A DNA stretch of 64,000 bases from Escherichia coli (GTDB lineage: Bacteria; Pseudomonadota; Gammaproteobacteria; Enterobacterales; Enterobacteriaceae), in the NCBI RefSeq assembly GCF_046105845.1, contig NZ_CP151004.1. One strand, 5' to 3'. Positions 2,950-32,900 of this stretch are shown here, piece after piece. How positions within the stretch are numbered: the first letter of the stretch is position 1; each line of letters begins with the position of its first letter. The position numbers and the translations under genes are program-made. The notes beneath the pieces are model-generated. The model was not told where the DNA came from. It did no database searches and was given only the letters and a program-made list of their open reading frames with translations.

Positions 2950-3938
2950 TCTTTGTCCTCTGCTTTCATTAAAACGGCGCGCTCGGTTCTGACTAACAAT
3001 TTTCCCTGCATCAGAAGCGCAAAAGTACGGATGAGCAGTATTGCAATAATAAAATTGGTAAAGATAAACAGCGGCACCGCCAGCGTATGGAAAAATCCAT
3101 TATCGCTGCCACTCCCCAGATGCAAACCGGTGGTTGCCAGTGCAGATACGCCGAACGAGAAACTCCAGAATGAAGCATTAAATGGCTGGGAGAGATACCA
3201 TGGCATCAGACGTAGCATAAACAGCAGTTGCAGCAGTCCATAACCGAAAAGCATTTTCGCCAGCGTGTCACCCTCGCCGCCGTTGACGCTCAGCCAGGCA
3301 CTACAGGCCACCAGCGCAGGAGCGAGCTGAATGCCGAGTGATGTCCGCAGCGCCGTGGGTAATTCTCCCGAACTGCGCAGACGCTGCAAGATCACCGGTT
3401 CAAGGCTTAGCCATGAGAAAACGCCTGCGCCTAAAAACACCAGACCGGCGTCGGTGTAGCCCAACGCACCACAGGCCATTGCGCTGATAAAGTTGTTGGC
3501 AACTGTCGGCAGATACAGTCCAGGCGTGGTAGCTTCTTCAGGATGAGATCCGCGCCATAATCCCGCAGTTTGCCAGGCGGCATAAGCCAACTGTACAACG
3601 ACACCAAAACTGAACAGGCATACCGCCAGTGGGCGAAACCACGGAACAAAACCAATCGCCACCAGCATCGTCGTTGCCGGAAACAAACTCACAAAACTGC
3701 TCAGCACTGGATGGCGAACTTCCGCCAGCACGCTATGCGGAAAGCGTATGAGTCGGGTAATAAATGCGCTAGTCAATAATCCCCAGATGATCATCGCCAG
3801 AATCACCAGCCCATCCCCTAACCAGTGGCTGACCTGCCAAACCTGGCTGGCATAGCGCCAGGCAAATCCCATCCCTATCGTCCCCAACACAATACCAAAG
3901 TAGCCTGCCGGCAAATTGAGCACTTTATCGCTCTGCAT
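2946..3938 (-). CDS. tehA: Tellurite resistance / dicarboxylate-transporter-family membrane protein TehA
   Basis: ORF track gives 366 aa; remembered TehA start [15 protein letters not shown] corresponds to ATG at 3938 (330 aa). Confidence 0.9.
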
Positions 3939-17547: not shown

Positions 17548-20500
17548 TTAACCGCTAATCTGCTCCATCGCCTGCAAAATACGCTTATCTGAAATCGGAT
17601 AAGGCGTACCAAGTTGTTGAGCGAAGTAACTAACGCGCAACTCTTCTATCATCCAACGGATCTCTTTAACGTCTTCATCCTCACGACGTGCGGGCGGTAG
17701 TTTGTTGAACCATTGCTGCCACGCCTGCTGGACGTTTTCGACTTTCAGCATCTGAGCACGGTCGCGATGCGGATCAACCGCCAGTTTTTCCAGTCGTTTT
17801 TCAATCGCCTGCAAATAACGCAGCGTGTCGCCCAGCCGTTTAAAACCGTTGCCAGTGACAAAACCGCGATACACCAGCCCGCCCATCTGCGCTTTAATGT
17901 CAGAAAGCCCCAGCGCCATGGTCATATCCACCCGCCCTTTCAGGCGTTTGTTGATATTGAACACTGCCGTAAGGATTTGCTCGACCTGCTTTGCAATATC
18001 CACCACCGTGTCGTTCAGTTCAGCGCGAACTTTTTCATGCAGCGCAGCAAAGCCTTCTTCCGTCCAGACCGGGCCACCATTGGCGTCGATCAGTTGATCC
18101 ACACCGCAGGAGATACAGTCGTCGATCAGCTCCAGCACTTTGCCATACGGGTTAAAGTACAGCCCAAGTTTGGCTTTGTTTGGCAACTTCTCATGCAAGT
18201 ATTTGATTGGTGAAGGAATATTCAGCAGCAGTAAACGACGAAGACCGTTCCACATCGCTTGCTTTTGTTCCAGCGGGTTATCAAACAGTTTGATCGCCAC
18301 GCTGTCGCGCTCATCCACCAACGCTGGCCACGCCTTCACTTTGTAGTTGCCACGCTTCTGTTCGTAGCTTTCCGGCAGCTGACCAAAACTCCAGATATGT
18401 AAGCCGCTCTGCTCGATACCGTCATCCGCCACCGCAGACAGCGTTTCCTGCACTTTGCCTTTCAGAGCATCTTTCAGATCCTGTAATGAGCGCCCTTCTT
18501 TTAACTTCTTGTTTTTGTCATCCACCACACGGAAGGTGATTTTCAGGTGATCGGGCACCTGATCCCAGTGCCAGTCTTCGCGGTCAACGGTGACGCCAGT
18601 CATCCGCCGTAGCTCTCGTTCAAGACTGTCGAGCAACGGCAATTCCAGCGGTGTGACGCGGCCTAGAAACGCTTCGGCGTAGGTTGGCGCGGGCACAAAA
18701 TTACGGCGTACTGGTTTCGGCAACGATTTAATCAGAGCAATCACCAGTTCGCGGCGCAGACCGGGGATCTGCCACTCAAACCCGCTCTCCTCAACCTGGT
18801 TAAGTAACGGCAGCGGGATATGCACAGTCACACCGTCAGCATCTGCCCCCGGCTCAAACTGATAGCTCAAACGCAGTTTGAGATTGCCCTGATGCCAGAA
18901 GTTCGGGTAATCCAGCTTGCTGATCTTTTCCGCCCCTTCTTTGATCAACATGCTCTTTTCAAAGTTGAGCAAATCAGGCGTTTCGCGGCTGACTTTTTTC
19001 CACCAGCTGTCGAAGTGACGTGCGGAGATCACATCGTGGCTGATGCGCTGGTCGTAAAACTCAAACAGCGTTTCGTCATCCACCAGAATATCGCGGCGAC
19101 GTGTTTTGTGTTCCAGTTCTTCCACTTCGGCCCGTAGTTTCAGGTTTTCACGGAAGAATGCGTGACGCGTCTGCCAGTCACCTTCCACCAGCGCGTGGCG
19201 AATAAAGAGTTCACGACATAACGCCGGATCGATCTGGCTGTAGTTGACCTTGCGCGCGGCAACAATCGGCAAGCCATAAACAGTGACTTTTTCCGTTGCC
19301 ATCACCGCGCCCTGCGCCCGTTCCCAGTGTGGTTCGCTGTAGGTGCGTTTAATTAAATGCTGAGCAACTGGCTCCACCCATTCTGGATCGATGCGTGCCG
19401 CAATGCGCCCCCACAGGCGGCTGGTTTCTACCAGTTCCGCCACCATTACCCATTTCGGCGGCTTTTTGAATAAACCAGAACCGGGAAAGATGGAAAAACG
19501 CGCGTTACGTGCGCCGGTATATTCTTGTTTATCGGCATCTTTCATGCCGATATGGGAAAGCAAACCGGTCAGTAAGGCGATGTGAATTTCGCGATACTCC
19601 GCCGGTTCGCTGTTAACCGGAATGCCAAGTTCTTTCACCACCTGGCGCAACTGGGTGTAGATATCCTGCCATTCGCGCACGCGCAGATAGTTGAGATAAT
19701 CGGTACGACACAGGCGACGGAAGGCGTTAGAAGAAAGCGCCTTTTGCTGCTCGCCAAGATAATTCCACAGATTTACAAACGCGAGGAAGTCGGATTCTTT
19801 GTCGTGGAAGCGACGATGTTTTTCGTCCGATGCCTGCTGTTTGTCCATTGGTCGCTCACGCGGATCCTGAATGGAGAGCGCGGACGTGATAATCATCGCC
19901 TCACGCACGCAGCCATGTTTTTGCGCTTCCAGCACCATACGCGCCAGACGAGGATCGACAGGCAATTGCGAAAGCTGGCGACCGAGCGGCGTTAGTTTAT
20001 AGGCGCTGGCCTGTTCATCAGTGGTGATCGCACCCAGCTCTTCAAGCAGACGCACGCCATCCTGGATATTGCGTTTATCCGGTGCTTCGACAAACGGGAA
20101 CGCCGCGATATCACCCAGCCCCAGCGCGGTCATCTGCAAAATAACCGAGGCCAGGTTGGTACGCAGAATCTCCGGATCGGTAAACTCCGGGCGCGAGAGG
20201 AAATCGTCTTCGGAATAGAGACGAATACAGATCCCTTCAGACACACGACCACAGCGGCCTTTACGCTGATTGGCAGACGCCTGCGAAATCGGCTCAATCG
20301 GCAAACGCTGCACTTTGGTGCGATAGCTGTAGCGGCTGATACGTGCTGTACCGGGGTCGATAACGTATTTAATCCCCGGTACGGTCAGCGAGGTTTCCGC
20401 GACGTTGGTCGCCAGCACAATACGCCGTCCGCTGTGCGACTGGAACACGCGGTTCTGTTCGCTGTTCGAAAGCCGCGCATAAAGCGGCAAGATTTCGGTA

Positions 20501-21450
20501 TGCCGCAGATTTAGCTTGTTCAGCGCATCGGCGGTATCGCGAATTTCCCGCTCACCGCTCATAAAGATCAGAATGTCGCCTGGGCTTTCCTGACTCAGTT
20601 CGTCTACGGCGTCAAAAATCGCCTGCAGCTGATCGCGCTCGGTGTCATCGGCTTCTTCAACAATCGGTCGATAGCGCACTTCCACCGGATAGGTCCGACC
20701 GGAGACTTCGATAATCGGCGCATTATTAAAGTGGCGCGAAAAGCGTTCCGGGTCGATAGTCGCGGAAGTGATAATGATTTTTAGGTCAGGACGCCGCGGT
20801 AGCAACTCTTTCAAATAGCCGAGCAGAAAATCGATATTCAGGCTGCGTTCGTGCGCTTCGTCAATAATGATAGTGTCGTACTGCATCAGCAGGCGGTCTT
20901 GCTGGATCTCCGCCAGCAGGATACCGTCGGTCATCAGCTTGACCATCGTGTTATCACTAACGTGATCACTGAAACGCACTTTGTAACCGATGCAACCGCC
21001 CGGCTCCGTTTTCAGCTCTTCCGCAATACGGTTCGCCACCGTTCGCGCAGCCAGACGACGCGGCTGGGTATGGCCGATCAGCCCTTTAATCCCGCGCCCC
21101 AGCTCCATACAGATTTTCGGTAGCTGAGTCGTTTTACCGGAACCCGTTTCCCCGGCGACGATCACTACCTGGTGATCACGAATTGCTTCGAAAATGTCCT
21201 GCTTTTTCTGACTAACCGGCAAATTGTCCGGATAAGTGATTTCCGGTCGTGCCGCTTCACGCAGCAGGACTTTCCCTGCCGCATGGTCAATCTCTTTCGC
21301 CATCTCCTGGAAAATGGCCTGTTGTGCATCAGGATTTTTAACCTTCTTCACGCCGTGCAGACGGCGAGAAAAACGCAGTCTGTCGCGCAGCATCAGCGAA
21401 TCCAGCCGCTGCTGCAAGGCCGTAAAGGTCAATTTTTGTTGTTCTGTCAT
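17548..21450 (-). CDS. hrpA: ATP-dependent RNA helicase HrpA (DEAH-box)
   Basis: 1300-aa ORF with Walker A GETGSGKTTQLP and DEAH box; length identical to K-12 HrpA. Confidence 0.95.
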   Translation of the reverse strand: MTEQQKLTFTALQQRLDSLMLRDRLRFSRRLHGVKKVKNPDAQQAIFQEMAKEIDHAAGKVLLREAARPEITYPDNLPVSQKKQDIFEAIRDHQVVIVAGETGSGKTTQLPKICMELGRGIKGLIGHTQPRRLAARTVANRIAEELKTEPGGCIGYKVRFSDHVSDNTMVKLMTDGILLAEIQQDRLLMQYDTIIIDEAHERSLNIDFLLGYLKELLPRRPDLKIIITSATIDPERFSRHFNNAPIIEVSGRTYPVEVRYRPIVEEADDTERDQLQAIFDAVDELSQESPGDILIFMSGEREIRDTADALNKLNLRHTEILPLYARLSNSEQNRVFQSHSGRRIVLATNVAETSLTVPGIKYVIDPGTARISRYSYRTKVQRLPIEPISQASANQRKGRCGRVSEGICIRLYSEDDFLSRPEFTDPEILRTNLASVILQMTALGLGDIAAFPFVEAPDKRNIQDGVRLLEELGAITTDEQASAYKLTPLGRQLSQLPVDPRLARMVLEAQKHGCVREAMIITSALSIQDPRERPMDKQQASDEKHRRFHDKESDFLAFVNLWNYLGEQQKALSSNAFRRLCRTDYLNYLRVREWQDIYTQLRQVVKELGIPVNSEPAEYREIHIALLTGLLSHIGMKDADKQEYTGARNARFSIFPGSGLFKKPPKWVMVAELVETSRLWGRIAARIDPEWVEPVAQHLIKRTYSEPHWERAQGAVMATEKVTVYGLPIVAARKVNYSQIDPALCRELFIRHALVEGDWQTRHAFFRENLKLRAEVEELEHKTRRRDILVDDETLFEFYDQRISHDVISARHFDSWWKKVSRETPDLLNFEKSMLIKEGAEKISKLDYPNFWHQGNLKLRLSYQFEPGADADGVTVHIPLPLLNQVEESGFEWQIPGLRRELVIALIKSLPKPVRRNFVPAPTYAEAFLGRVTPLELPLLDSLERELRRMTGVTVDREDWHWDQVPDHLKITFRVVDDKNKKLKEGRSLQDLKDALKGKVQETLSAVADDGIEQSGLHIWSFGQLPESYEQKRGNYKVKAWPALVDERDSVAIKLFDNPLEQKQAMWNGLRRLLLLNIPSPIKYLHEKLPNKAKLGLYFNPYGKVLELIDDCISCGVDQLIDANGGPVWTEEGFAALHEKVRAELNDTVVDIAKQVEQILTAVFNINKRLKGRVDMTMALGLSDIKAQMGGLVYRGFVTGNGFKRLGDTLRYLQAIEKRLEKLAVDPHRDRAQMLKVENVQQAWQQWFNKLPPARREDEDVKEIRWMIEELRVSYFAQQLGTPYPISDKRILQAMEQISG

Positions 21451-21641
21451 AACGTTAGTGGGCAGTAGGCTGCCTGATTAATTTTCTTTTAAATGATAGA
21501 TATAGAGTACCACATCGCGGCTTTCTATGCGTTGTTCAATAAATTCGAACATAGGCTTCGATTTATTGCGCTATCTCTGTGGCAGGATTGTGAATAAAGT
21601 GTCAACAAGCAACGGGGCATCGCCCATTCAAACATCTATAA

Positions 21642-22256
<615 letters not shown>

Positions 22257-22270
22257 CCGGACACGGTCTT

Positions 22271-22300
22271 GATGTGGACTGTAGATATTCAGTCCACATC
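22271..22300. terminator. Bidirectional hairpin between convergent azoR and ydbC (gatgtggactg-N8-cagtccacatc)
   Basis: 11-bp perfect inverted repeat in the 113-bp intergenic region. Confidence 0.6.
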
Positions 22301-22369
22301 TTAATCCGCTTACCTGTTTTCTATCGCTTTGTGCTCTTCCTTAAGCACAATCTGCGAGCGCCTGACTCG

Positions 22370-23230
22370 TTATTCTCGCGAAATACCATCCAACGTAGAC
22401 AACACTTCCTCAGAAAGATGCAATTTTTCAGCAGCCATATTCTCCCGTAAATGCGCAACAGAAGACGTCCCTGGGATCAGCAAAATATTCGGTGAACGTT
22501 GTAACAGCCACGCCAGCGCCACCTGCATTGGTGTTGCACCCAGGCTCGCAGCAACATCGGAAAGCGTGGAAGATTGCAGCGGCGTAAAGCCCCCGAGCGG
22601 AAAGAACGGCACGTAGGCAATGCCATCGCGGGCCAAATCATCAATCATTGCGTCATCAGCACGATGAGCAATGTTGTATTCGTTCTGCACACAGACGATT
22701 TCGGTAATCTTACGCGCCTCTGCAACCTGCGTCGGTGTGACGTTGCTCAGGCCAATATGTTTTACCAGGCCTTGTTGTTGCATCTCTGCCAGCACGGTCA
22801 GGCTGGCTTCAATCGATCCTTCCGCCGGGCCATGACCATCCCCCATCATGACGCGCAGGTTAACCACATCCAGTACGTCCAGACCGAGATTACGTAGATT
22901 ATCGTGCACCGCTTTTTGCAGCTCTGCCGGAGAAAATGCGGGCAACCAGGAAGCGTCCTCTCCACGCCGCGCACCAATTTTAGTGACAATTGTCAGGTCG
23001 TCAGAGTAAGGATGTAGCGCTTCGCGGATAATCTGATTGGTGACGTGCGGACCATAAAAGTCGCTGGTATCAATATGATTGACGCCCAATGCCAGCGCCT
23101 CGCGCAGCACGGTTATAGCAACGTGGCGATCTCTTGGGGGGCCAAAAACCCCAGGGCCTGCCAGTTGCATCGCGCCATAACCAAGACGGTTAACGGATTT
23201 TGTACCGAGAGTAAATGTGTTGCTGCTCAT
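22370..23230 (-). CDS. ydbC: Aldo-keto reductase family oxidoreductase YdbC
   Basis: 286-aa ORF with AKR fold signatures; matches remembered YdbC. Confidence 0.88.
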   Translation of the reverse strand: MSSNTFTLGTKSVNRLGYGAMQLAGPGVFGPPRDRHVAITVLREALALGVNHIDTSDFYGPHVTNQIIREALHPYSDDLTIVTKIGARRGEDASWLPAFSPAELQKAVHDNLRNLGLDVLDVVNLRVMMGDGHGPAEGSIEASLTVLAEMQQQGLVKHIGLSNVTPTQVAEARKITEIVCVQNEYNIAHRADDAMIDDLARDGIAYVPFFPLGGFTPLQSSTLSDVAASLGATPMQVALAWLLQRSPNILLIPGTSSVAHLRENMAAEKLHLSEEVLSTLDGISRE

Positions 23231-23385
23231 CGCACCCTGCCCTGTAGTAAAACGGATTAAGAAAAATCAGTATAGAAACGAAAAGAGATAAATAATGCGA
23301 AGGCGTAAACAAGATTACTGGATGAGTTGCTCTATTGTCCTTGAAGACACCAAACCAAAACGCCTAAAGCATCGCATCCGGCAAT

Positions 23386-23416
23386 AAAAAACCGCAACCT
23401 GTATCAGCGTTGCGGT
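23386..23416 (-). terminator. Rho-independent terminator downstream of paaY (accgcaac...gttgcggt + T-run on minus strand)
   Basis: 8-bp stem with A5 on plus strand; adjacent partial REP-like motif gcatcgcatccggcaa. Confidence 0.6.
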
Positions 23417-23460
23417 TTGTGTATCACATGCTAAAAATTAGAACGTCCAGCATCAGGACG

Positions 23461-24051
23461 TTACTGTTTCGGTCGCAGATTCTCATCAAATACCAGGCGT
23501 TTCCTGCCAGGTTCAACTTCCCGCAATGGCTCGACTTGATGTAACGTCTGCTTACAGCGTGTCACCAGCACCTGGTACTCATGCGTACCCTGCTTTTTCC
23601 ATGCCAACTCCTGCTCACTGAGTTCACGAATCGCTTTCGCCGGGCTGCCGACAATCAGGTAATTAGCTGGCATTTCTGCTTTGGCTTTCACAAATGCGGA
23701 TGCGCCAACAATGCTGTTCTCGCCAATCACCGCACCGTCTATCACTACCGCGTTCATTCCCACTAATGCATTGCGGCGGATAATGCAGCCGTGAAGGATA
23801 GCGCTATGACCAATATGTCCATCTTCTTCCACGACAGTATCCTGCTCGGGAAAACCGTGCATAACGCAATTATCCTGAATGTTCGCGCCATTTTTCACCA
23901 CGATACGATCAAAATCGCCACGCAGGCTGGCATTTGGCCCAACGTAAACGCCCTTGCCGAGAATAACATCGCCGATCAATACCGCTGTCGGATGAACAAA
24001 ACTCTCTTGTGGTACAACCGGAGTCAGACCGTCTATCTGATAAATTGGCAT
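23461..24051 (-). CDS. paaY: PaaY-like hexapeptide-repeat acyltransferase/thioesterase, intact but lacking the rest of the paa cluster
   Basis: 196-aa [37 protein letters not shown]... with left-handed beta-helix repeats; matches PaaY. Confidence 0.85.
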
Positions 24052-24158
24052 AACGCCTCCTGTTCAATATTCAAGCCGCCAAAACGTTGAAAATACAGGC
24101 TTCCCGGCGCAGGCAATTCACCGACCGAGGTTTCACCTTTTTCACTAACGAACGCTAA
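24033..24158 (-). pseudogene. paaX: 3'-terminal remnant of paaX (about 40 C-terminal codons), 5' part deleted
   Basis: Minus-strand frame ends 19 nt inside paaY as expected for paaX; N-terminal part of the 97-aa ORF is antisense to the feaR remnant, so only about 24033-24158 is likely paaX-derived; junction position approximate. Confidence 0.45.
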
Positions 24159-24392
24159 AGCAGCAGGCGCTACGCGCTGATAAAGTTTGCCGATAAAGGT
24201 TTGGTAGTCGCGCAATATATCCGTAACCGTCGTCTCGATTTTTGTGCAGATGCGATTCGCCATGCCGCAGATGATGAAAAACTGGCAGGCATTGGCTTTC
24301 ATTGGGGATTTTCCGACCAGAGTCATTTTTCAACGGTATTTAAGCAACGCTTTGGGATGACGCCAGGCGAGTATCGACGTAAATTCCGCTAA
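24159..24392 (+). pseudogene. feaR: 3'-terminal remnant of feaR (AraC-family C-terminal HTH region), 5' part deleted
   Basis: Plus frame ...YALIKFADKGLVVAQYIRNRRLDFCADAIRHAADDEKLAGIGFHWGFSDQSHFSTVFKQRFGMTPGEYRRKFR* is a typical AraC/XylS second HTH; in-frame stop at 24156-24158; convergent with ydbL as feaR is in K-12. Confidence 0.5.
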
Positions 24393-24428
24393 CTAATTCG
24401 CGTTGCATGTACAGCAACGCGAATTAGT
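24391..24428. terminator. Perfect 16-bp inverted repeat (aactaattcgcgttgc-atgtac-gcaacgcgaattagtt) between feaR remnant and ydbL
   Basis: Seen directly; lies at the convergent 3' ends; no strong T-run, so could be a bidirectional terminator or a protein-binding palindrome. Confidence 0.5.
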
Positions 24429-24563
24429 TAAAACAGATATTTGACTATGCATTTTTCAGGGCGAAAGGCAATTTGACAGGAATTTTTGAATATTCACCTT
24501 GTTTCCGGAAAATAGAATAATCGCCTTCTCCTGTAGCGTTATCCCGATATTGCGGTTTTGCTA

Positions 24564-24890
24564 TTAAAATTTTCGCACCCATTTACCGTTTATCCCTTGT
24601 ACATATTCCCCCGGTTTAGCCCGAGCTACGAGCTTTTGCCCGGCGAGTTTCGCGATATCATCTACCGAGACATTATTTTGCTTTGCCAGTTGTTGGTAAC
24701 TCGCTTTACGTTCGGCATTAATGTCGTTTACTAATTTCTCTGTTTCAGCATCTGTTTTCAGCGCAACCAGATAACCATAAAATGTTTCCCCTACCCGCCC
24801 CTGAGTTCTGGCTTCATCCAGAGTCAATGCCATTACATTGCTGCTTACCAGCCCAACAAGAAACGCACAAAGAAGTAATGTTTTCTTCAT
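24564..24890 (-). CDS. ydbL: DUF1318-family periplasmic protein YdbL
   Basis: Start trimmed to MKKTLLLCAFLVGLVSSNVMA (signal peptide), 108 aa. Confidence 0.85.
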   Translation of the reverse strand: MKKTLLLCAFLVGLVSSNVMALTLDEARTQGRVGETFYGYLVALKTDAETEKLVNDINAERKASYQQLAKQNNVSVDDIAKLAGQKLVARAKPGEYVQGINGKWVRKF

Positions 24891-24897
24891 CATCGCC

Positions 24898-25083
24898 TCA
24901 AAAAAGATCGCTACGAGTCTCAAGCAGCTCTTCGACATCTTTGTCTGCCTTGATGATGATCTCATGCTCAATTTTAACGTTCATATTGATAGTGATTGGT
25001 TCCTTAGGTGCAGCGACTTCAATGCGAGGCGTACAGCCAACCAGCATAAAAGATGACGTCAACGCAGCCAGTAAAATTTTCAT
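24898..25083 (-). CDS. ynbE: Small lipoprotein YnbE
   Basis: 61-aa ORF with lipobox (LVGCT); overlaps ydbH stop (coupled). Confidence 0.85.
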   Translation of the reverse strand: MKILLAALTSSFMLVGCTPRIEVAAPKEPITINMNVKIEHEIIIKADKDVEELLETRSDLF

Positions 25084-27719
25084 TGTTTTTCCTCACACTC
25101 TTTTCCTTGCGGACAGTCATTTCCCGGCAGACGTGCGTTCTGCTCCAACCATGCCTGGAGATTATCGCCAAAGCGTAAACTGCGCCACAGCGTAAAAATA
25201 TTCTCTTCGTGATGGTAATTAAGGTTTACCGTACCGCTTTTACCATCAACGCGACTGGTACCTGTAATGTTGGCCTGCATGGTTAATAAACCGAGATTAT
25301 CTAAGTTAATTTTTGTCGATGAACGGCTAATTTCCATATAGCGCAACCAGTTAATTGCTGAACCCGCAGTCATATTGTCTTTTACCACCGCATCAGCAGT
25401 GTCTTTATCCAGCCGCAAGGTCATTGGCCCGCTATTTGCCAGCCAACCATCTTTCACTATCCATTTTTCGTTGTTTAGCCATAACGGCAATGCACCACTA
25501 AATGCCCCGGACATGGCGAATTGTTTCGGATTGACGGCGCTAACCAGTTCGCTGGATGAGAGATTATTCAGCCGCAACAGCGCCGGGTCATGTTGCGGCA
25601 TACGTAATTGTTTCATCAGCACGTTACCGCCTAACACATCGACGCTAACATCAGTCAACAGCAATGGTTCTTCTTCAGTCCACGGATAACGCCCTTGCAA
25701 ATCAGCCGTAATATTTTTCGCTGTCACCAGATTAATCACTTCGGCAATTCGCAACGTAACGGGGCCGCGAGTCCCCAGATGCCAGGCTCCATCGGCAAAA
25801 CGGAAAGGCAGGACAAAATCGACACCGTTAACCTGATTATCTGGCATCCAGGCACTACCGCCTTTCAACACACCGTGCCCTCCCGCGCGGAATCCTTGTT
25901 CAGGCGCAGCAGAAAATGCAACCTGGGCATACAGTTCGCCATCGCGTAAGTTCATCTTCCAGTCGGGTGGCACCAGCGGCTGGAATACAGTTAGTGATTG
26001 TTTAGGCCACCAGGCGTTACCGCGCAGACGAATACCGTCCCAGCGACCATTTACCCGAACCGGGCCAATCTCACCAGCATGTAAATCGCCTTTAAAGAGG
26101 AAATACGTCGGATCGCGTCCATCGACGCTAAATTTTAAGGTTGATGGCGGTAACACACTGCCGCCAGTGAACAGCGTTTGCCCGGCGTCCAGTGACAGCG
26201 CGCCGCTAAAGGAGGGATGCTGTGCGTCACGTACCCAGACGACGGGCTTATCGAGAATTAGTCGCGGCTTTTCTACCGTCATCGTACCGTATTGTAACTG
26301 GTCGAAACCGGTGGAGAGATCGGTCAGCGTAATCGTGCTGTCATGCCACTCACCCTTTCCTGCGACATCCCAGGTGGCATTCATCGGTGTAAAACTGCCT
26401 TTTCCCCAGTAGCGCCACTGCCAGCGGCCAGCGTCAGGGAGAAAATCATTCGCCAGTCCATCCATATGCAGCACGAAATCGCCCAGTTCATTTTCATGCG
26501 CCTGCAAAATGGCCTGCAAACGTCCGTCAACACCACGTTGGGTGACTTTTACACCCGCTAAAGGCCAGCGGATTTCATCGATGTCCAGCGAATCGATGAC
26601 TCTTCCCTTCGAACGTAATAACGCGCCTGGCTCAAAGGCCAGCGTTGGGTCAGTCAGACTTCCGCTTAGCTGCGCAGGTAAACGGGCATATAAAATGAGG
26701 TCCGCCTGTTTCGCTTCACCGGTCAGTTGCATAGGCAGCTGGCTGTTATCCATGCTTAATTTTCCAGGGCCAAAATTAAGCACCGCGTTGCCCTTACCCG
26801 CTTGCCCCTGGGTCAGCACACTCAGTCGTCCGCTGACCAGAGCGTTCTCGAGCCCTGCCTGCCAGTTGTCGACTTTGACACCCAGTCGGCCACTCAAAGG
26901 AAAACCTGCATACGGCCAGCTCCAGCGACCATCGCTTACGGTCAATTGTTGACGAGTAATTTGCCACGGCAGATCGAGCAACGGATCACCGTTATCCTGT
27001 GCCAGCACAATCAATTGCCCGCTATTTTCCTGCCAGTCCAGCTCGGCATCCACCAGTGAAGGCTCCTGCGGCAAGTTTAACGTCGCAGTAGCATGACCAC
27101 TTACAGGAAGTCCATCCGGCACGAGCGGCATAGTAAATTCCCCCACCAGTTTAACCGGCGGCTGATTTTCAAACGCGACGACATCCAGTTCGCTGACTGT
27201 AAGTTGTTGCCCTTTCAGCTGGCCTTGAAATTTAACTTTTTCGCCCTGATAACGCAGTTGCTGGATATCAGAGGTTAACGCGAGAGAGAGTTTTCCCTGC
27301 CACTCCTGCCAGGGAGAAAAAATCAGTTTATCGATATTGATCCAGGTGTTAGGCAACATGGCCTGCCACTGCGCGAGGGTTTTTGGAGCGGCAGGCGATT
27401 GCTCCGTCTGCGGCAATTTCGCCAGACAAGCAGAATCAAGTTCTACCGTGCCGACGTTCAATAACCAGCGGCTGGGATGTGAAAGGCTGGCGTTGGTGAT
27501 ATGCGCAAGCTGACAATCTCCCACCAGATAACGGAGATCGGGGATGATTAAACCTTTACGCGTAATACGTGGGCTTTCATCTAATGCAATACGTGTCCCG
27601 AGCGGTAGCCAGATGCCCGCCAGCGTGGGAACCCACAAGCCGAGCGTCATCAGCAGCGTCAACGGCACAAGAATAATCAGTAATAACAGCGCGAGAACGG
27701 CTTTATTTTTACCCAGCAT
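25080..27719 (-). CDS. ydbH: Large AsmA-like/DUF748 envelope protein YdbH
   Basis: 879-aa ORF with N-terminal TM anchor; length identical to K-12 YdbH; ydbH-ynbE-ydbL operon. Confidence 0.9.
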   Translation of the reverse strand: MLGKNKAVLALLLLIILVPLTLLMTLGLWVPTLAGIWLPLGTRIALDESPRITRKGLIIPDLRYLVGDCQLAHITNASLSHPSRWLLNVGTVELDSACLAKLPQTEQSPAAPKTLAQWQAMLPNTWINIDKLIFSPWQEWQGKLSLALTSDIQQLRYQGEKVKFQGQLKGQQLTVSELDVVAFENQPPVKLVGEFTMPLVPDGLPVSGHATATLNLPQEPSLVDAELDWQENSGQLIVLAQDNGDPLLDLPWQITRQQLTVSDGRWSWPYAGFPLSGRLGVKVDNWQAGLENALVSGRLSVLTQGQAGKGNAVLNFGPGKLSMDNSQLPMQLTGEAKQADLILYARLPAQLSGSLTDPTLAFEPGALLRSKGRVIDSLDIDEIRWPLAGVKVTQRGVDGRLQAILQAHENELGDFVLHMDGLANDFLPDAGRWQWRYWGKGSFTPMNATWDVAGKGEWHDSTITLTDLSTGFDQLQYGTMTVEKPRLILDKPVVWVRDAQHPSFSGALSLDAGQTLFTGGSVLPPSTLKFSVDGRDPTYFLFKGDLHAGEIGPVRVNGRWDGIRLRGNAWWPKQSLTVFQPLVPPDWKMNLRDGELYAQVAFSAAPEQGFRAGGHGVLKGGSAWMPDNQVNGVDFVLPFRFADGAWHLGTRGPVTLRIAEVINLVTAKNITADLQGRYPWTEEEPLLLTDVSVDVLGGNVLMKQLRMPQHDPALLRLNNLSSSELVSAVNPKQFAMSGAFSGALPLWLNNEKWIVKDGWLANSGPMTLRLDKDTADAVVKDNMTAGSAINWLRYMEISRSSTKINLDNLGLLTMQANITGTSRVDGKSGTVNLNYHHEENIFTLWRSLRFGDNLQAWLEQNARLPGNDCPQGKECEEKQ

Positions 27720-27926
27720 GGGTAGTTAATATCCTGATTTAGCGAAAAATTAAGCATTCAATACGGGTATTGTGGCATGTTTAACCGTTCAGTTGAAGGT
27801 TGCGCCTACACTAAGCATAGTTGTTGATGAATTTTTCAATATCGCCATAGCTTTCAATTATATTTGAAATTTTGTAAAATATTTTTAGTAGCTTAAATGT
27901 GATTCAACATCACTGGAGAAAGTCTT

Positions 27927-28916
27927 ATGAAACTCGCCGTTTATAGCACAAAACAGTACGACAAGAAGTACCTGCAACAGGTGAACGAGTCCTTTGGCTT
28001 TGAGCTGGAATTTTTTGACTTTCTGCTGACGGAAAAAACCGCTAAAACTGCCAATGGCTGCGAAGCGGTATGTATTTTCGTAAACGATGACGGCAGCCGC
28101 CCGGTGCTGGAAGAGCTGAAAAAGCACGGCGTTAAATATATCGCCCTGCGCTGTGCCGGTTTCAATAACGTCGACCTTGACGCGGCAAAAGAACTGGGGC
28201 TGAAAGTAGTCCGTGTTCCAGCCTATGATCCAGAAGCCGTTGCTGAACACGCCATCGGTATGATGATGACGCTGAACCGCCGTATTCATCGCGCGTATCA
28301 GCGTACTCGTGACGCCAACTTCTCTCTGGAAGGTCTGACCGGCTTTACTATGTATGGCAAAACGGCAGGCGTTATCGGTACCGGTAAAATCGGTGTGGCG
28401 ATGCTGCGCATTCTGAAAGGTTTTGGTATGCGTCTGCTGGCGTTCGATCCGTATCCAAGTGCGGCGGCACTGGAACTCGGTGTGGAGTATGTCGATCTGC
28501 CAACCCTGTTCTCTGAATCAGACGTTATCTCTCTGCACTGCCCGCTGACACCGGAAAACTACCATCTGTTGAACGAAGCCGCCTTCGATCAGATGAAAAA
28601 TGGCGTGATGATCGTCAATACCAGTCGCGGTGCATTGATTGATTCTCAGGCGGCAATTGAAGCGCTGAAAAATCAGAAAATTGGTTCGTTGGGTATGGAC
28701 GTGTATGAGAACGAACGCGATCTGTTCTTTGAAGACAAATCCAACGACGTGATCCAGGATGACGTGTTCCGTCGTCTGTCTGCCTGCCACAACGTGCTGT
28801 TTACCGGGCACCAGGCATTCCTGACAGCAGAAGCACTGACCAGTATTTCTCAGACTACGCTGCAAAACTTAAGCAATCTGGAAAAAGGCGAAACCTGCCC
28901 GAACGAACTGGTTTAA
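27927..28916 (+). CDS. ldhA: Fermentative D-lactate dehydrogenase LdhA (NAD-dependent 2-hydroxyacid dehydrogenase)
   Basis: 329-aa ORF MKLAVYSTKQYDKKYLQQVNE..., NAD-binding GxGxxG (GVIGTGKIG). Confidence 0.95.
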   Translation: MKLAVYSTKQYDKKYLQQVNESFGFELEFFDFLLTEKTAKTANGCEAVCIFVNDDGSRPVLEELKKHGVKYIALRCAGFNNVDLDAAKELGLKVVRVPAYDPEAVAEHAIGMMMTLNRRIHRAYQRTRDANFSLEGLTGFTMYGKTAGVIGTGKIGVAMLRILKGFGMRLLAFDPYPSAAALELGVEYVDLPTLFSESDVISLHCPLTPENYHLLNEAAFDQMKNGVMIVNTSRGALIDSQAAIEALKNQKIGSLGMDVYENERDLFFEDKSNDVIQDDVFRRLSACHNVLFTGHQAFLTAEALTSISQTTLQNLSNLEKGETCPNELV

Positions 28917-28923
28917 TCTTGCC

Positions 28924-28948
28924 GCTCCCCTGCATTCCAGGGGAGCTT
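28924..28948 (+). terminator. Hairpin after ldhA (gctcccctg-cattc-caggggagc)
   Basis: 9-bp stem immediately after stop; T-run weak. Confidence 0.5.
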
Positions 28949-29026
28949 ATTCAGATAATCCCCAAAGACCTTTCATCCTCTATTCTTAAAATAGTCCTGA
29001 GTCAGAAACTGTAATTGAGAACCACA

Positions 29027-29449
29027 ATGAAGAAAGTAGCCGCGCTCGTTGCGCTAAGCCTGCTGATGGCGGGATGTGTAAGTAATGACAAAATTGCTGT
29101 AACCCCAGAGCAGCTACAGCATCATCGCTTTGTGCTGGAAAGCGTAAACGGTAAGCCCGTGACCAGCGATAAAAATCCGCCAGAAATCAGCTTTGGTGAA
29201 AAGATGATGATTTCCGGCAGCATGTGTAACCGCTTTAGCGGTGAAGGCAAACTGTCTAATGGTGAACTGACAGCCAAAGGGCTGGCAATGACCCGTATGA
29301 TGTGCGCTAACCCGCAGCTTAATGAACTCGATAACACCATTAGCGAAATGCTGAAAGAAGGTGCACAAGTGGATCTGACCGCGAACCAGTTAACGCTGGC
29401 GACCGCGAAACAGACATTAACTTATAAGCTAGCGGATTTAATGAATTAA
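29027..29449 (+). CDS. hslJ: Heat-shock lipoprotein HslJ (META domain)
   Basis: Start trimmed to MKKVAALVALSLLMAGCVSN (lipobox), 140 aa. Confidence 0.9.
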   Translation: MKKVAALVALSLLMAGCVSNDKIAVTPEQLQHHRFVLESVNGKPVTSDKNPPEISFGEKMMISGSMCNRFSGEGKLSNGELTAKGLAMTRMMCANPQLNELDNTISEMLKEGAQVDLTANQLTLATAKQTLTYKLADLMN

Positions 29450-29712
29450 TAGCTGCCACAGCTCCCGGCGGCAAGTGACTGTTCGCTACAGCGTTTGCCG
29501 TTGGGTAATGCACACATCCCAATCGCCGTACCATCCAGTTGACGGGCAACAGAAAGCGAACCGCCGATCATTGCACAATTTGCTTCTCCACTACTGGACA
29601 TCGACGCTTTTAAACCTGGCGCTACGTGCGCCGCAGTCGCCTGCTGAACAGGTTCACTACTACACGCCGACAACAATAAAGCGGCACACCCTACCCAAAA
29701 CGCTGCTCGCAT
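29446..29712 (-). CDS. ydbJ: DUF333-family small secreted protein YdbJ
   Basis: 88-aa ORF with signal peptide/lipobox (LLSACSS); K-12 synteny. Confidence 0.8.
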   Translation of the reverse strand: MRAAFWVGCAALLLSACSSEPVQQATAAHVAPGLKASMSSSGEANCAMIGGSLSVARQLDGTAIGMCALPNGKRCSEQSLAAGSCGSY

Positions 29713-29985
29713 CTTTTCTTCCTCTGATCTTCAAGCCAAACGACACCGCCATAAATAATAGGCAGCACAGAGGGCGACGTCGAGAGCTGTCCTGCGCGTT
29801 GCCCCGCATTTTTACTTTTTTATGGCTATTTTTTTGCCCTCTGTTTGATCAAAACATTCATTACGCTGATGTGGGGGACACAAAAGCGAAAATGCAGAAG
29901 AAAGCCATTTGCTAAAATTGAAAGATAACTACTGGGCGCGCAGCAATTTCGTGCGCCCCTCATTTGCGCAATGTAAGGGTGTCAT

Positions 29986-32900
29986 ATGATTACTATTGAC
30001 GGTAATGGCGCGGTTGCTTCGGTGGCGTTTCGCACCAGTGAAGTTATCGCCATCTACCCTATTACCCCCAGTTCCACGATGGCAGAACAGGCTGATGCAT
30101 GGGCAGGAAACGGCTTAAAGAACGTTTGGGGAGACACACCACGCGTGGTTGAAATGCAGTCGGAAGCGGGTGCTATCGCTACCGTGCATGGCGCTTTGCA
30201 GACGGGTGCCCTTTCAACATCGTTTACGTCATCGCAGGGTTTGCTGCTGATGATCCCGACGCTGTACAAACTGGCAGGCGAACTGACGCCATTTGTCCTG
30301 CATGTAGCGGCACGTACCGTTGCCACACATGCACTCTCTATTTTTGGCGATCATTCCGACGTTATGGCGGTGCGCCAGACGGGTTGCGCGATGTTGTGTG
30401 CAGCAAACGTCCAGGAAGCGCAAGACTTTGCTCTTATTTCGCACATCGCGACGCTGAAGAGTCGCGTGCCATTTATTCATTTCTTTGATGGTTTCCGCAC
30501 GTCCCACGAGATCAATAAAATTGTCCCGCTGGCCGATGACACTATTCTTGAACTGATGCCGCAGGCCGAAATTGATGCTCATCGCGCCCGGGCACTCAAC
30601 CCGGAACATCCGGTGATCCGCGGTACGTCCGCCAATCCTGATACTTATTTCCAGTCTCGCGAAGCCACCAACCCATGGTACAACGCGGTCTATGACCATG
30701 TTGAGCAGGCGATGAATGATTTCGCTGCCGCGACAGGTCGTCAGTATCAGCCGTTTGAGTATTACGGGCATTCGCAAGCGGAACGGGTGATTATCCTGAT
30801 GGGCTCTGCCATTGGTACCTGTGAAGAAGTGGTTGATGAACTGCTAACCCGTGGCGAAAAAGTCGGCGTGCTGAAAGTTCGCCTGTACCGTCCCTTCTCC
30901 GCCAAACACTTGCTACAAGCTCTGCCGGGATCCGTACGCAGCGTGGCGGTACTGGACAGAACCAAAGAACCAGGTGCCCAGGCAGAACCGCTCTATCTGG
31001 ATGTGATGACCGCACTGGCAGAAGCCTTTAATAATGGCGAGCGCGAAACCCTGCCCCGTGTCATTGGTGGGCGCTATGGTCTTTCATCCAAAGAATTTGG
31101 CCCGGACTGTGTACTGGCGGTATTTGCCGAGCTCAACGCGGCTAAACCGAAAGCGCGCTTTACGGTTGGTATTTACGATGATGTGACCAATCTGTCACTG
31201 CCGTTGCCGGAAAACACCCTGCCAAACTCGGCGAAACTGGAAGCCTTGTTTTATGGCCTTGGCAGTGATGGCAGCGTTTCCGCGACCAAAAACAATATCA
31301 AGATTATCGGTAATTCCACGCCGTGGTACGCACAGGGCTATTTTGTTTACGACTCCAAAAAGGCGGGCGGCCTGACGGTTTCTCACCTTCGCGTGAGCGA
31401 GCAGCCGATTCGTTCCGCTTATCTCATTTCCCAGGCTGATTTTGTTGGCTGCCACCAGTTGCAGTTTATCGATAAATATCAGATGGTTGAACGTTTAAAA
31501 CCTGGCGGCATTTTCCTGCTCAACACGCCGTACAGCGTAGATGAAGTGTGGTCGCGCTTGCCGCAGGAAGTTCAGGCCGTGTTAAACCAGAAAAAAGCGC
31601 GCTTCTATGTGATTAACGCGGCGAAAATCGCCCGCGAATGTGGCCTGGCGGCCCGTATTAATACCGTCATGCAGATGGCTTTTTTCCATCTGACGCAAAT
31701 TCTGCCTGGCGATAGCGCCCTCGCAGAATTGCAGGGTGCGATTGCCAAAAGTTACAGTAGCAAAGGTCAGGATCTGGTGGAGCGCAACTGGCAGGCTCTG
31801 GCGCTGGCGCGTGAATCCGTAGAAGAAGTTCTGTTGCAGCCGGTTAATCCGCACAGCGCCAATCGACCGCCTGTGGTTTCCGATGCCGCTCCTGATTTCG
31901 TGAAAACCGTTACCGCGGCGATGCTCGCCGGGCTTGGTGATGCCCTCCCCGTTTCGGCGCTGCCGCCAGACGGCACCTGGCCGATGGGCACCACGCGCTG
32001 GGAAAAACGCAATATCGCCGAAGAGATCCCCATCTGGAAAGAGGAACTCTGTACCCAATGTAACCACTGCGTCGCCGCTTGCCCACACTCAGCTATTCGC
32101 GCAAAAGTGGTGCCGCCTGAAGCGATGGAAAACTCCCCTGCCAGCCTGCATTCGCTGGATGTGAAATCGCGTGATATGCGCGGGCAGAAATATGTCTTGC
32201 AGGTGGCTCCGGAAGATTGCACCGGTTGTAACCTGTGCGTCGAAGTTTGCCCGGCGAAAGACCGTCAGAATCCAGAGATTAAAGCCATCAATATGATGTC
32301 GCGGCTGGAACATGTCGAAGAAGAGAAAATCAATTACGATTTCTTCCTCAACCTGCCAGAAATCGACCGTAGCAAACTGGAACGTATTGATATTCGTACA
32401 TCGCAGCTGATTACACCGCTGTTTGAATATTCCGGTGCTTGCTCCGGTTGTGGCGAGACGCCGTATATTAAATTGCTGACTCAGCTCTATGGCGACCGGA
32501 TGTTGATCGCTAACGCCACCGGCTGTTCTTCAATTTATGGCGGTAACCTGCCCTCTACACCGTATACCACCGATACCAACGGTCGCGGGCCGGCATGGGC
32601 GAACTCTCTATTTGAAGATAATGCCGAATTTGGCCTTGGTTTCCGCCTGACGGTCGATCAACACCGTGTCCGCGTGCTGCGTCTGCTGGATCAATTTGCC
32701 GATAAAATCCCGGCGGAATTACTGACTGCGTTGAAATCAGACGCCACGCCAGAGGTTCGTCGAGAACAGGTCGCAGCTTTACGCCAGCAACTCAACGATG
32801 TTGCCGAAGCACATGAACTGCTACGTGACGCAGATGCACTGGTGGAAAAATCGATCTGGCTGATTGGTGGCGATGGCTGGGCTTACGATATCGGCTTTGG

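Follow-up and report, generated by a model that had tools for sequence, protein, structure and literature searches.

In all probability, the short stretch between paaY and ydbL in the window (i.e., the whole 64-kb stretch of E. coli DNA analyzed here) records one old deletion of single origin, which has left paaY behind as a decaying, promoter-less orphan. In K-12 coordinates, 17,752 bp are gone, and with them feaB, tynA, paaZ, paaABCDEFGHIJK, the promoter Px and both regulators, one ancient illegitimate-recombination event having probably brought the 3' parts of paaX and feaR together. The deletion appears to have arisen once and is now carried across several phylogroups and by about 5% of the complete genomes, homologous recombination in the flanks having probably shuffled the neighbouring paaY alleles, and the carriers would have lost the route leading from 2-phenylethylamine via phenylacetaldehyde and phenylacetate to the TCA cycle, presumably together with growth on it.

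The scar per se consists of two remnants occupying positions 24033-24392. On the minus strand, 24033-24184 is what remains of paaX, namely 152 nt from its 3' end with 49 codons plus 2 nt and the stop codon; it overlaps the start of paaY by 19 nt in an arrangement kept as in K-12 (ORF list). On the plus strand, 24185-24392 holds the last 208 nt of feaR, i.e., 68 codons encoding the C-terminal AraC-type helix-turn-helix and the stop codon. The stop codons of paaX and feaR end at 24033 and 24392, respectively, and 24052-24392 measures 341 bp. By blastn, window 23460-24184 matches paaY and the 3' 152 nt of paaX of K-12 MG1655 at 98.3% identity, and 24182-24700 matches, at 97.3%, the stretch running from the 3' ~210 nt of feaR through the intergenic hairpin into ydbL, both matches being ungapped with an E-value of 0, which places the paaX remnant at 21339-21490 and the feaR remnant at 3379-3589 of the K-12 locus (L001). 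Translated, the remnants correspond to residues 266-316 of K-12 PaaX (96%) and 234-301 of K-12 FeaR (100%; both by tblastn), and they match positions 243-278 of 279 in NCBIfam model TIGR02277 and 236-303 of 303 in NF007243 (FeaR), respectively. An earlier note made from the letters alone had described head-to-head 3' remnants of feaR and paaX here, which blastn, base-by-base alignment, tblastn and the NCBIfam models all bear out; the alignment to K-12 that it had proposed as a check puts both fragments at the 3' ends of these genes (blastn, tblastn), and its coordinates proved exact down to the paaX end lying inside paaY (base-by-base alignment).

PaaX is a GntR-type repressor of the paa operons, and FeaR is an AraC-family activator of tynA and feaB. 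The deleted part of paaX comprises its 5' 799 nt together with the promoter Px, and that of feaR its 5' 698 nt. Instead of a full-length PaaX with its N-terminal winged-helix DNA-binding domain, only 49 of 316 codons are left (24 bits against a cut-off of 264), and paaY is left without its partner PaaX, as the earlier note said; instead of a full-length FeaR with its N-terminal sensing domain and first helix-turn-helix, 68 of 301 codons are left (125 bits against a cut-off of 199). The feaR remnant adjoins the ydbL-feaR hairpin, with the synteny with ydbL being as in K-12.

The breakpoint was placed by a three-way base alignment between 24184 and 24185, the junction reading ...GCGCTGATAAA up to it and GTTTGCCGAT... 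after it. The K-12 parental sequences are GATAAATGTTGAT in paaX and CCGAATGTTTGCC in feaR, with AATGTT occurring in both, and the junction lacks a T of this parental AATGTT, which makes it an imperfect microhomology. No IS element, direct repeat or target-site duplication was found within 24033-24392, unlike in the IS1-bounded deletion (type C) described below. We read the junction, from its bases, as a product of illegitimate recombination at imperfect microhomology, bearing the features by which a short-homology deletion would be recognized. The missing DNA corresponds to NC_000913.3 1,446,586-1,464,337, i.e., 17,752 bp, and takes in 698 nt of feaR, feaB, tynA, paaZ, paaA-K and 799 nt of paaX; the single event and the gene content proposed at the outset were correct, whereas the size of about 16 kb, estimated by K-12 gene order, was too small.

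An identical junction is present in 259 of the 5,426 complete RefSeq E. coli genomes (~5%), an ST648 genome being among the carriers. Eight carriers were retrieved (042, E2348/69, A25, 181.1, FDAARGOS_497, PD23, GPEC1352 and HYM1), and their scars align with the window without gaps over 1,001 bp, the 41-nt junction sequence being identical in all nine genomes when the window is counted. Of these, 042 belongs to phylogroup D, E2348/69 to B2 and ST648 to F. The exact junction 30-mer had 0 matches in a scan of one genome per GTDB species. PGAP marks both remnants as pseudogenes (partial PaaX and helix-turn-helix) in 042, E2348/69 and other carriers. A 97-aa chimeric ORF also spans the fusion (24033-24326, minus strand), starting antisense to feaR, running in frame into the PaaX C-terminus and stopping after 19 nt of overlap with paaY; all 9 scar carriers examined have it open, the few differences among the carriers in this stretch are mostly amino-acid-changing, neither a promoter-like site nor an annotation was found for it, and it is probably a by-product of the fusion.

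What the deletion did to transcription of the surviving gene is best seen from the paaXY operon, whose promoter Px is situated ahead of paaX (PMC9493321). Px therefore went with the rest of the deleted sequence, and the earlier statement that paaY has lost its operon promoter holds. The paa-cluster context and the Px-driven expression are both gone from paaY, the cluster and Px being deleted, and no promoter-like (sigma-70-like) site was found on the minus strand of 24052-24430, i.e., from the hairpin to paaY. This hairpin (24390-24430), a perfect one of 17 bp situated between the feaR and ydbL stop codons, has a folding energy of -30.9 kcal/mol (z = -7.9), lacks a U-tract on both strands and does not pass an intrinsic-terminator scan; ydbL and feaR, which once converged on it, shared it as a terminator-like element of uncertain efficiency. 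Beyond it lies ydbL (24564-24890, minus strand), the last gene of ydbH-ynbE-ydbL (ynbE and ydbH at 25080-27719, minus strand) by synteny with K-12 and 042 and the ORF list. It is upstream of paaY on the same strand and would be the only obvious source of a transcript able to reach paaY, so any residual paaY expression would need read-through from ydbH-ynbE-ydbL across the hairpin devoid of a U-tract.

The gene paaY itself (23461-24051, minus strand, ATG at 24049-24051) is an ORF of 196 aa, and it was correctly called intact: the full 196 aa are present, the product is 96.9% identical to K-12 PaaY over 196 aa, and it scores 370.4 bits against the TIGR02287 equivalog (cut-off 319.6, residues 3-195 of 196) while staying below the CaiE model's own cut-off. 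By sequence, the product is a hexapeptide-repeat, gamma-carbonic-anhydrase-like predicted thioesterase. Thioesterase activity on 2-hydroxycyclohepta-1,4,6-triene-1-formyl-CoA would be expected of a PaaY. The gene still has a ribosome-binding site (AGGAGG), 5 nt ahead of its ATG. Four changes in the window PaaY are seen in no paa+ allele, of which E15Q, G48D and D54N occur in the window only and M104I also in 042, FDAARGOS_497 and PD23; the residue aligned with G48 in 8gpm, the closest solved homologue, is Gly. In E2348/69 (L010 6425-7045) and A25 (L011 4865-5485), the ATG of paaY has become AAG and the stop codon has been lost, and radical substitutions (A23E, I90N, D105V and G135S in both, V52E in E2348/69 only) have accumulated. 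PGAP calls a 615-nt paaY in these two genomes, starting two codons downstream at an isoleucine codon, which probably depicts a decaying gene annotated as intact.

As to why paaY is there at all, the data favour a relaxed constraint on a short gene that seems to have chanced to be outside the breakpoint. Private changes, meaning those found in scar-carrier alleles (nine carriers sampled) and absent from all six paa+ alleles, amount to 22 nonsynonymous and 16 synonymous ones in the carriers versus 10 and 35, respectively, segregating among the paa+ alleles (Fisher p = 0.0014), the comparison resting on just six paa+ alleles. Rare variants are generally enriched for nonsynonymous changes, and once the E2348/69 lineage is left out, the carrier ratio of 10 to 12 (p = 0.086) is suggestive only. 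Pairwise dN/dS (omega) lies at 0.03-0.13 when paa+ paaY alleles are compared with one another and reaches as much as 0.5 for the window. All nine scar carriers sampled have a paaY devoid of internal stops and frameshifts, and the HYM1 allele has 0 nonsynonymous and 6 synonymous private changes, which, together with the open ORFs, fits either continued purifying selection or a recent import from a paa+ strain. Because paaY is truncated in the 564 genomes with a type B deletion (described below) and absent in types C and D, it is dispensable. The gene probably survives for being just outside the breakpoint and not for being needed, with a short paaY probably being refreshed on occasion by recombination with paa+ strains while slowly decaying.

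The contrary explanation, hinted at by the earlier note as a paa-independent role, would have the orphan paaY under selection for a phenylacetate-independent function (as a general acyl-CoA thioesterase or a gamma-carbonic-anhydrase-like protein) and expressed by read-through; if true, it would account for an ORF that has stayed open in seven of the nine carriers, window counted. Speaking for it are the open ORF and strong AGGAGG site in the window and in 6/8 other carriers despite the deletion not being recent, the score above the PaaY equivalog cut-off, the HYM1 allele with its purely synonymous private changes, and the position of ydbL upstream on the same strand behind a hairpin without a U-tract, as well as the wider CoA-derivative substrate range reported for EcoPaaY (PMC9493321). 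Against it stand the nonsynonymous excess in the carriers (22:16 vs. 10:35, p = 0.0014), the paaY alleles of E2348/69 and A25 that have neither start nor stop codon any longer, the truncation in 564 type B genomes and the absence in types C and D, the G48D change of the window allele at a residue that is Gly in 8gpm, and the upstream region in which no promoter-like site was found. On balance, such selection is improbable, and we hold out little hope for its more specific form as well, in which paaY is maintained in phylogroups D and F through ydbH-ynbE-ydbL read-through for a housekeeping role (e.g., acyl-CoA proofreading).

The flanks of the junction differ among the carriers by up to 5%, and since an identical junction is found in 259 genomes all the same, the deletion is either old or has been spread by recombination; the "very recent loss" raised earlier as a possible reason for the intact paaY is not supported by these figures (259/5,426 genomes, flanks up to 5% diverged). 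The paaY alleles of the scar carriers do not form a clade, with that of the window being 11 nt from K-12 and 26 nt from 181.1, whereas 181.1 and the window have the same sequence throughout the 341-nt remnant region. This sharp mosaic boundary (26 differences in paaY and none in the remnants) implies recombination around a single-origin junction, and the simplest reading of the sequences compared would be that the junction originated once and that flanking alleles were then swapped by homologous recombination. That the same junction formed independently in several lineages at a hot spot is very unlikely: the locus is indeed deletion-prone, with at least four different deletion types, and the paaY alleles of the carriers have diverged as much as those of the species overall, as recurrence would have it, but the junction is base-for-base the same in 9/9 sampled genomes, including the lost T in AATGTT, an imperfect 6-bp microhomology would not guide repeated identical events, and the boundary in 181.1 points to recombination.

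A tblastn search of the 64-kb window with the K-12 Fea, TynA and Paa proteins returned the remnants, paaY and an aldA paralogue only. With a composite query in which 300-nt pieces of tynA, paaA and paaK were added to the scar, read on the best 60 scar-carrying complete chromosomes, a second site with tynA, paaA or paaK was seen in 0 of these 60, each having one matching place; the paaY-paaX and feaR pieces likewise have a single place in junction carriers, and genomes with the paaX and feaR ends apart number ~3,186 (derived from place counts) compared with 3,147 that have paaABC. As 60/60 scar chromosomes are without tynA, paaA and paaK elsewhere, loss rather than relocation is indicated, and it is extremely unlikely that the cluster moved to another chromosomal site or a plasmid and left two 3' fragments behind, for all that the source genome is viewed here through 64 kb only and a few plasmid paa matches (3 places) exist in the collection, given the lack of a second place on these chromosomes, the one place held by the paaY-paaX and feaR pieces, and the agreement between ~3,186 and 3,147 genomes.

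The wider neighbourhood of the scar comprises hrpA (17548-21450, minus strand), azoR (21651-22256, plus strand) and pdxI/ydbC (22370-23230, minus strand), and its identities vary along the sequence. The scar region agrees with 042 and ST648-type genomes at ~99%, and the longer stretch 22367-30000 agrees with 042 at 98.7%; 30000-54000 (the nifJ-fnr side) is 99.1% identical to the dog strain 19KM1831, whose locus is of type D, and hrpA-azoR is only ~96-96.5% identical to K-12 and the other loci compared (hrpA ~96% to K-12). No close complete relative was found with 10-kb and 24-kb queries, the best matches being 19KM1831 at 99.1% on one flank and others of only ~96-97% over hrpA. Judged by these identities, window 17000-54000 is of mosaic ancestry.

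A second deletion scar is situated at 22257-22369, where the 3'-terminal ~72 nt of ynbD run straight into the pdxI stop codon, TCG being the microhomology, and ~7.05 kb is missing relative to K-12 (ydbD, ynbA, ynbB, ynbC and most of ynbD). This ynbD/pdxI junction is found in 145 of 5,426 complete genomes; the ydbD-ynbD genes persist in 042, and azoR and pdxI are joined differently in E2348/69 and A25. At 23231-23460, between paaY and pdxI, the ydbA autotransporter (in K-12 an 8.6-kb pseudogene with IS2 and IS30) is missing, ~150 bp of the ydbA end and the pdxI upstream region being left at 89.9% identity to K-12. Because several paa+ strains also have pdxI directly beside paaY, the absence of ydbA is unrelated to the paa deletion. 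In SCAID URN1-2021 (L006 608-7690), a 7-kb ORF at the ydbA position is labelled "EntS/YbdA MFS transporter" in RefSeq, which looks like a mis-annotation, perhaps owing to a mix-up of the names ydbA and ybdA.

In practical terms, the scar predicts that 2-phenylethylamine, phenylacetaldehyde and phenylacetate would not be used as carbon or nitrogen sources, a predicted loss common to the source strain, 042, E2348/69 and ST648-type strains. The junction, with GCGCTGATAAA directly followed by GTTTGCCGAT, makes a handy PCR or k-mer marker of the deletion allele, although beyond strain typing the scar is of little importance, being an ordinary and known kind of event. It does illustrate that a catabolic island of E. 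coli has been lost repeatedly via different mechanisms, with paaABC being kept in just 3,147 genomes (58% of the 5,426 complete ones), and that a short gene outside a breakpoint can remain open for long without clear functional evidence.

At least three further deletion types hit the fea-tynA-paa locus, which makes at least four with the paaX/feaR scar. In type B (564 genomes; e.g., L005 6002-6580 and L004 7633-8211), a 329-nt paaY 3' fragment is fused to a 252-nt feaR 3' fragment; it is commoner than the paaX/feaR scar and independent of it. Aligned with the window paaY, the type B fragment of paaY reaches only 89.8% identity and shows gaps, and since 252 nt of feaR but just 329 nt of paaY are kept, type B cannot derive from the paaX/feaR scar. 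Type C ends at an IS1 element and is IS1-mediated, and in type D, represented by 19KM1831 and a urinary isolate, ydbL lies beside the ydbA autotransporter without remnants, paaY being absent from both. A breakpoint in feaR shared across these architectures, as might be read from query matches covering 98-201 or 101-201 only, was considered and rejected, because those genomes keep 252 or 312 nt of feaR and the apparent common end is merely the end of the feaR portion of the query.

No publication was found on the exact junction or on an orphan paaY, only general accounts of the variability of the locus, which has been described as a heterogeneous region hit by several deletions independently, mastitis strains having tynA-paaZABCDE deletions and a paaA-paaK fusion (PMC4951805). 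Types B, C and D and the mastitis deletions lie, like the paaX/feaR scar, in one variable locus that the core genes ydbH-ynbE-ydbL and azoR-hrpA flank, and entail the loss of aromatic amine or phenylacetate catabolism, whereas their breakpoints differ from those of the scar, the mastitis ones being internal to the cluster. Similarly, tynA is absent from most UPEC, EPEC and O157 isolates (PMC4640556), and UPEC CFT073 is missing a 33-kb region around tynA (Elovaara et al. 2015, PMC4640556); this gap, likened to the scar by its published description, is larger than the scar deletion and also represents the loss of tynA and paa genes from a pathogenic lineage in the same chromosomal neighbourhood.

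The closest counterparts are the scars already present in sequenced strains, although their surroundings have diverged: 042 retains the ydbD-ynbD genes that the window lacks, and E2348/69, unlike the window, has a decayed paaY and an ISEc13 insertion. In 042 (EC042_RS08085/EC042_RS27765), E2348/69 (E2348C_RS08250/E2348C_RS26835) and the ST648-type genomes, paaY, pdxI and ydbL are adjacent as in the window, PGAP gives the paaX remnant 153 nt and the helix-turn-helix gene 207 nt, and breakpoints, junction and remnant lengths are the same. The scar is a lineage marker, a widespread deletion allele that genome annotation already covers, at a locus whose variability is known.
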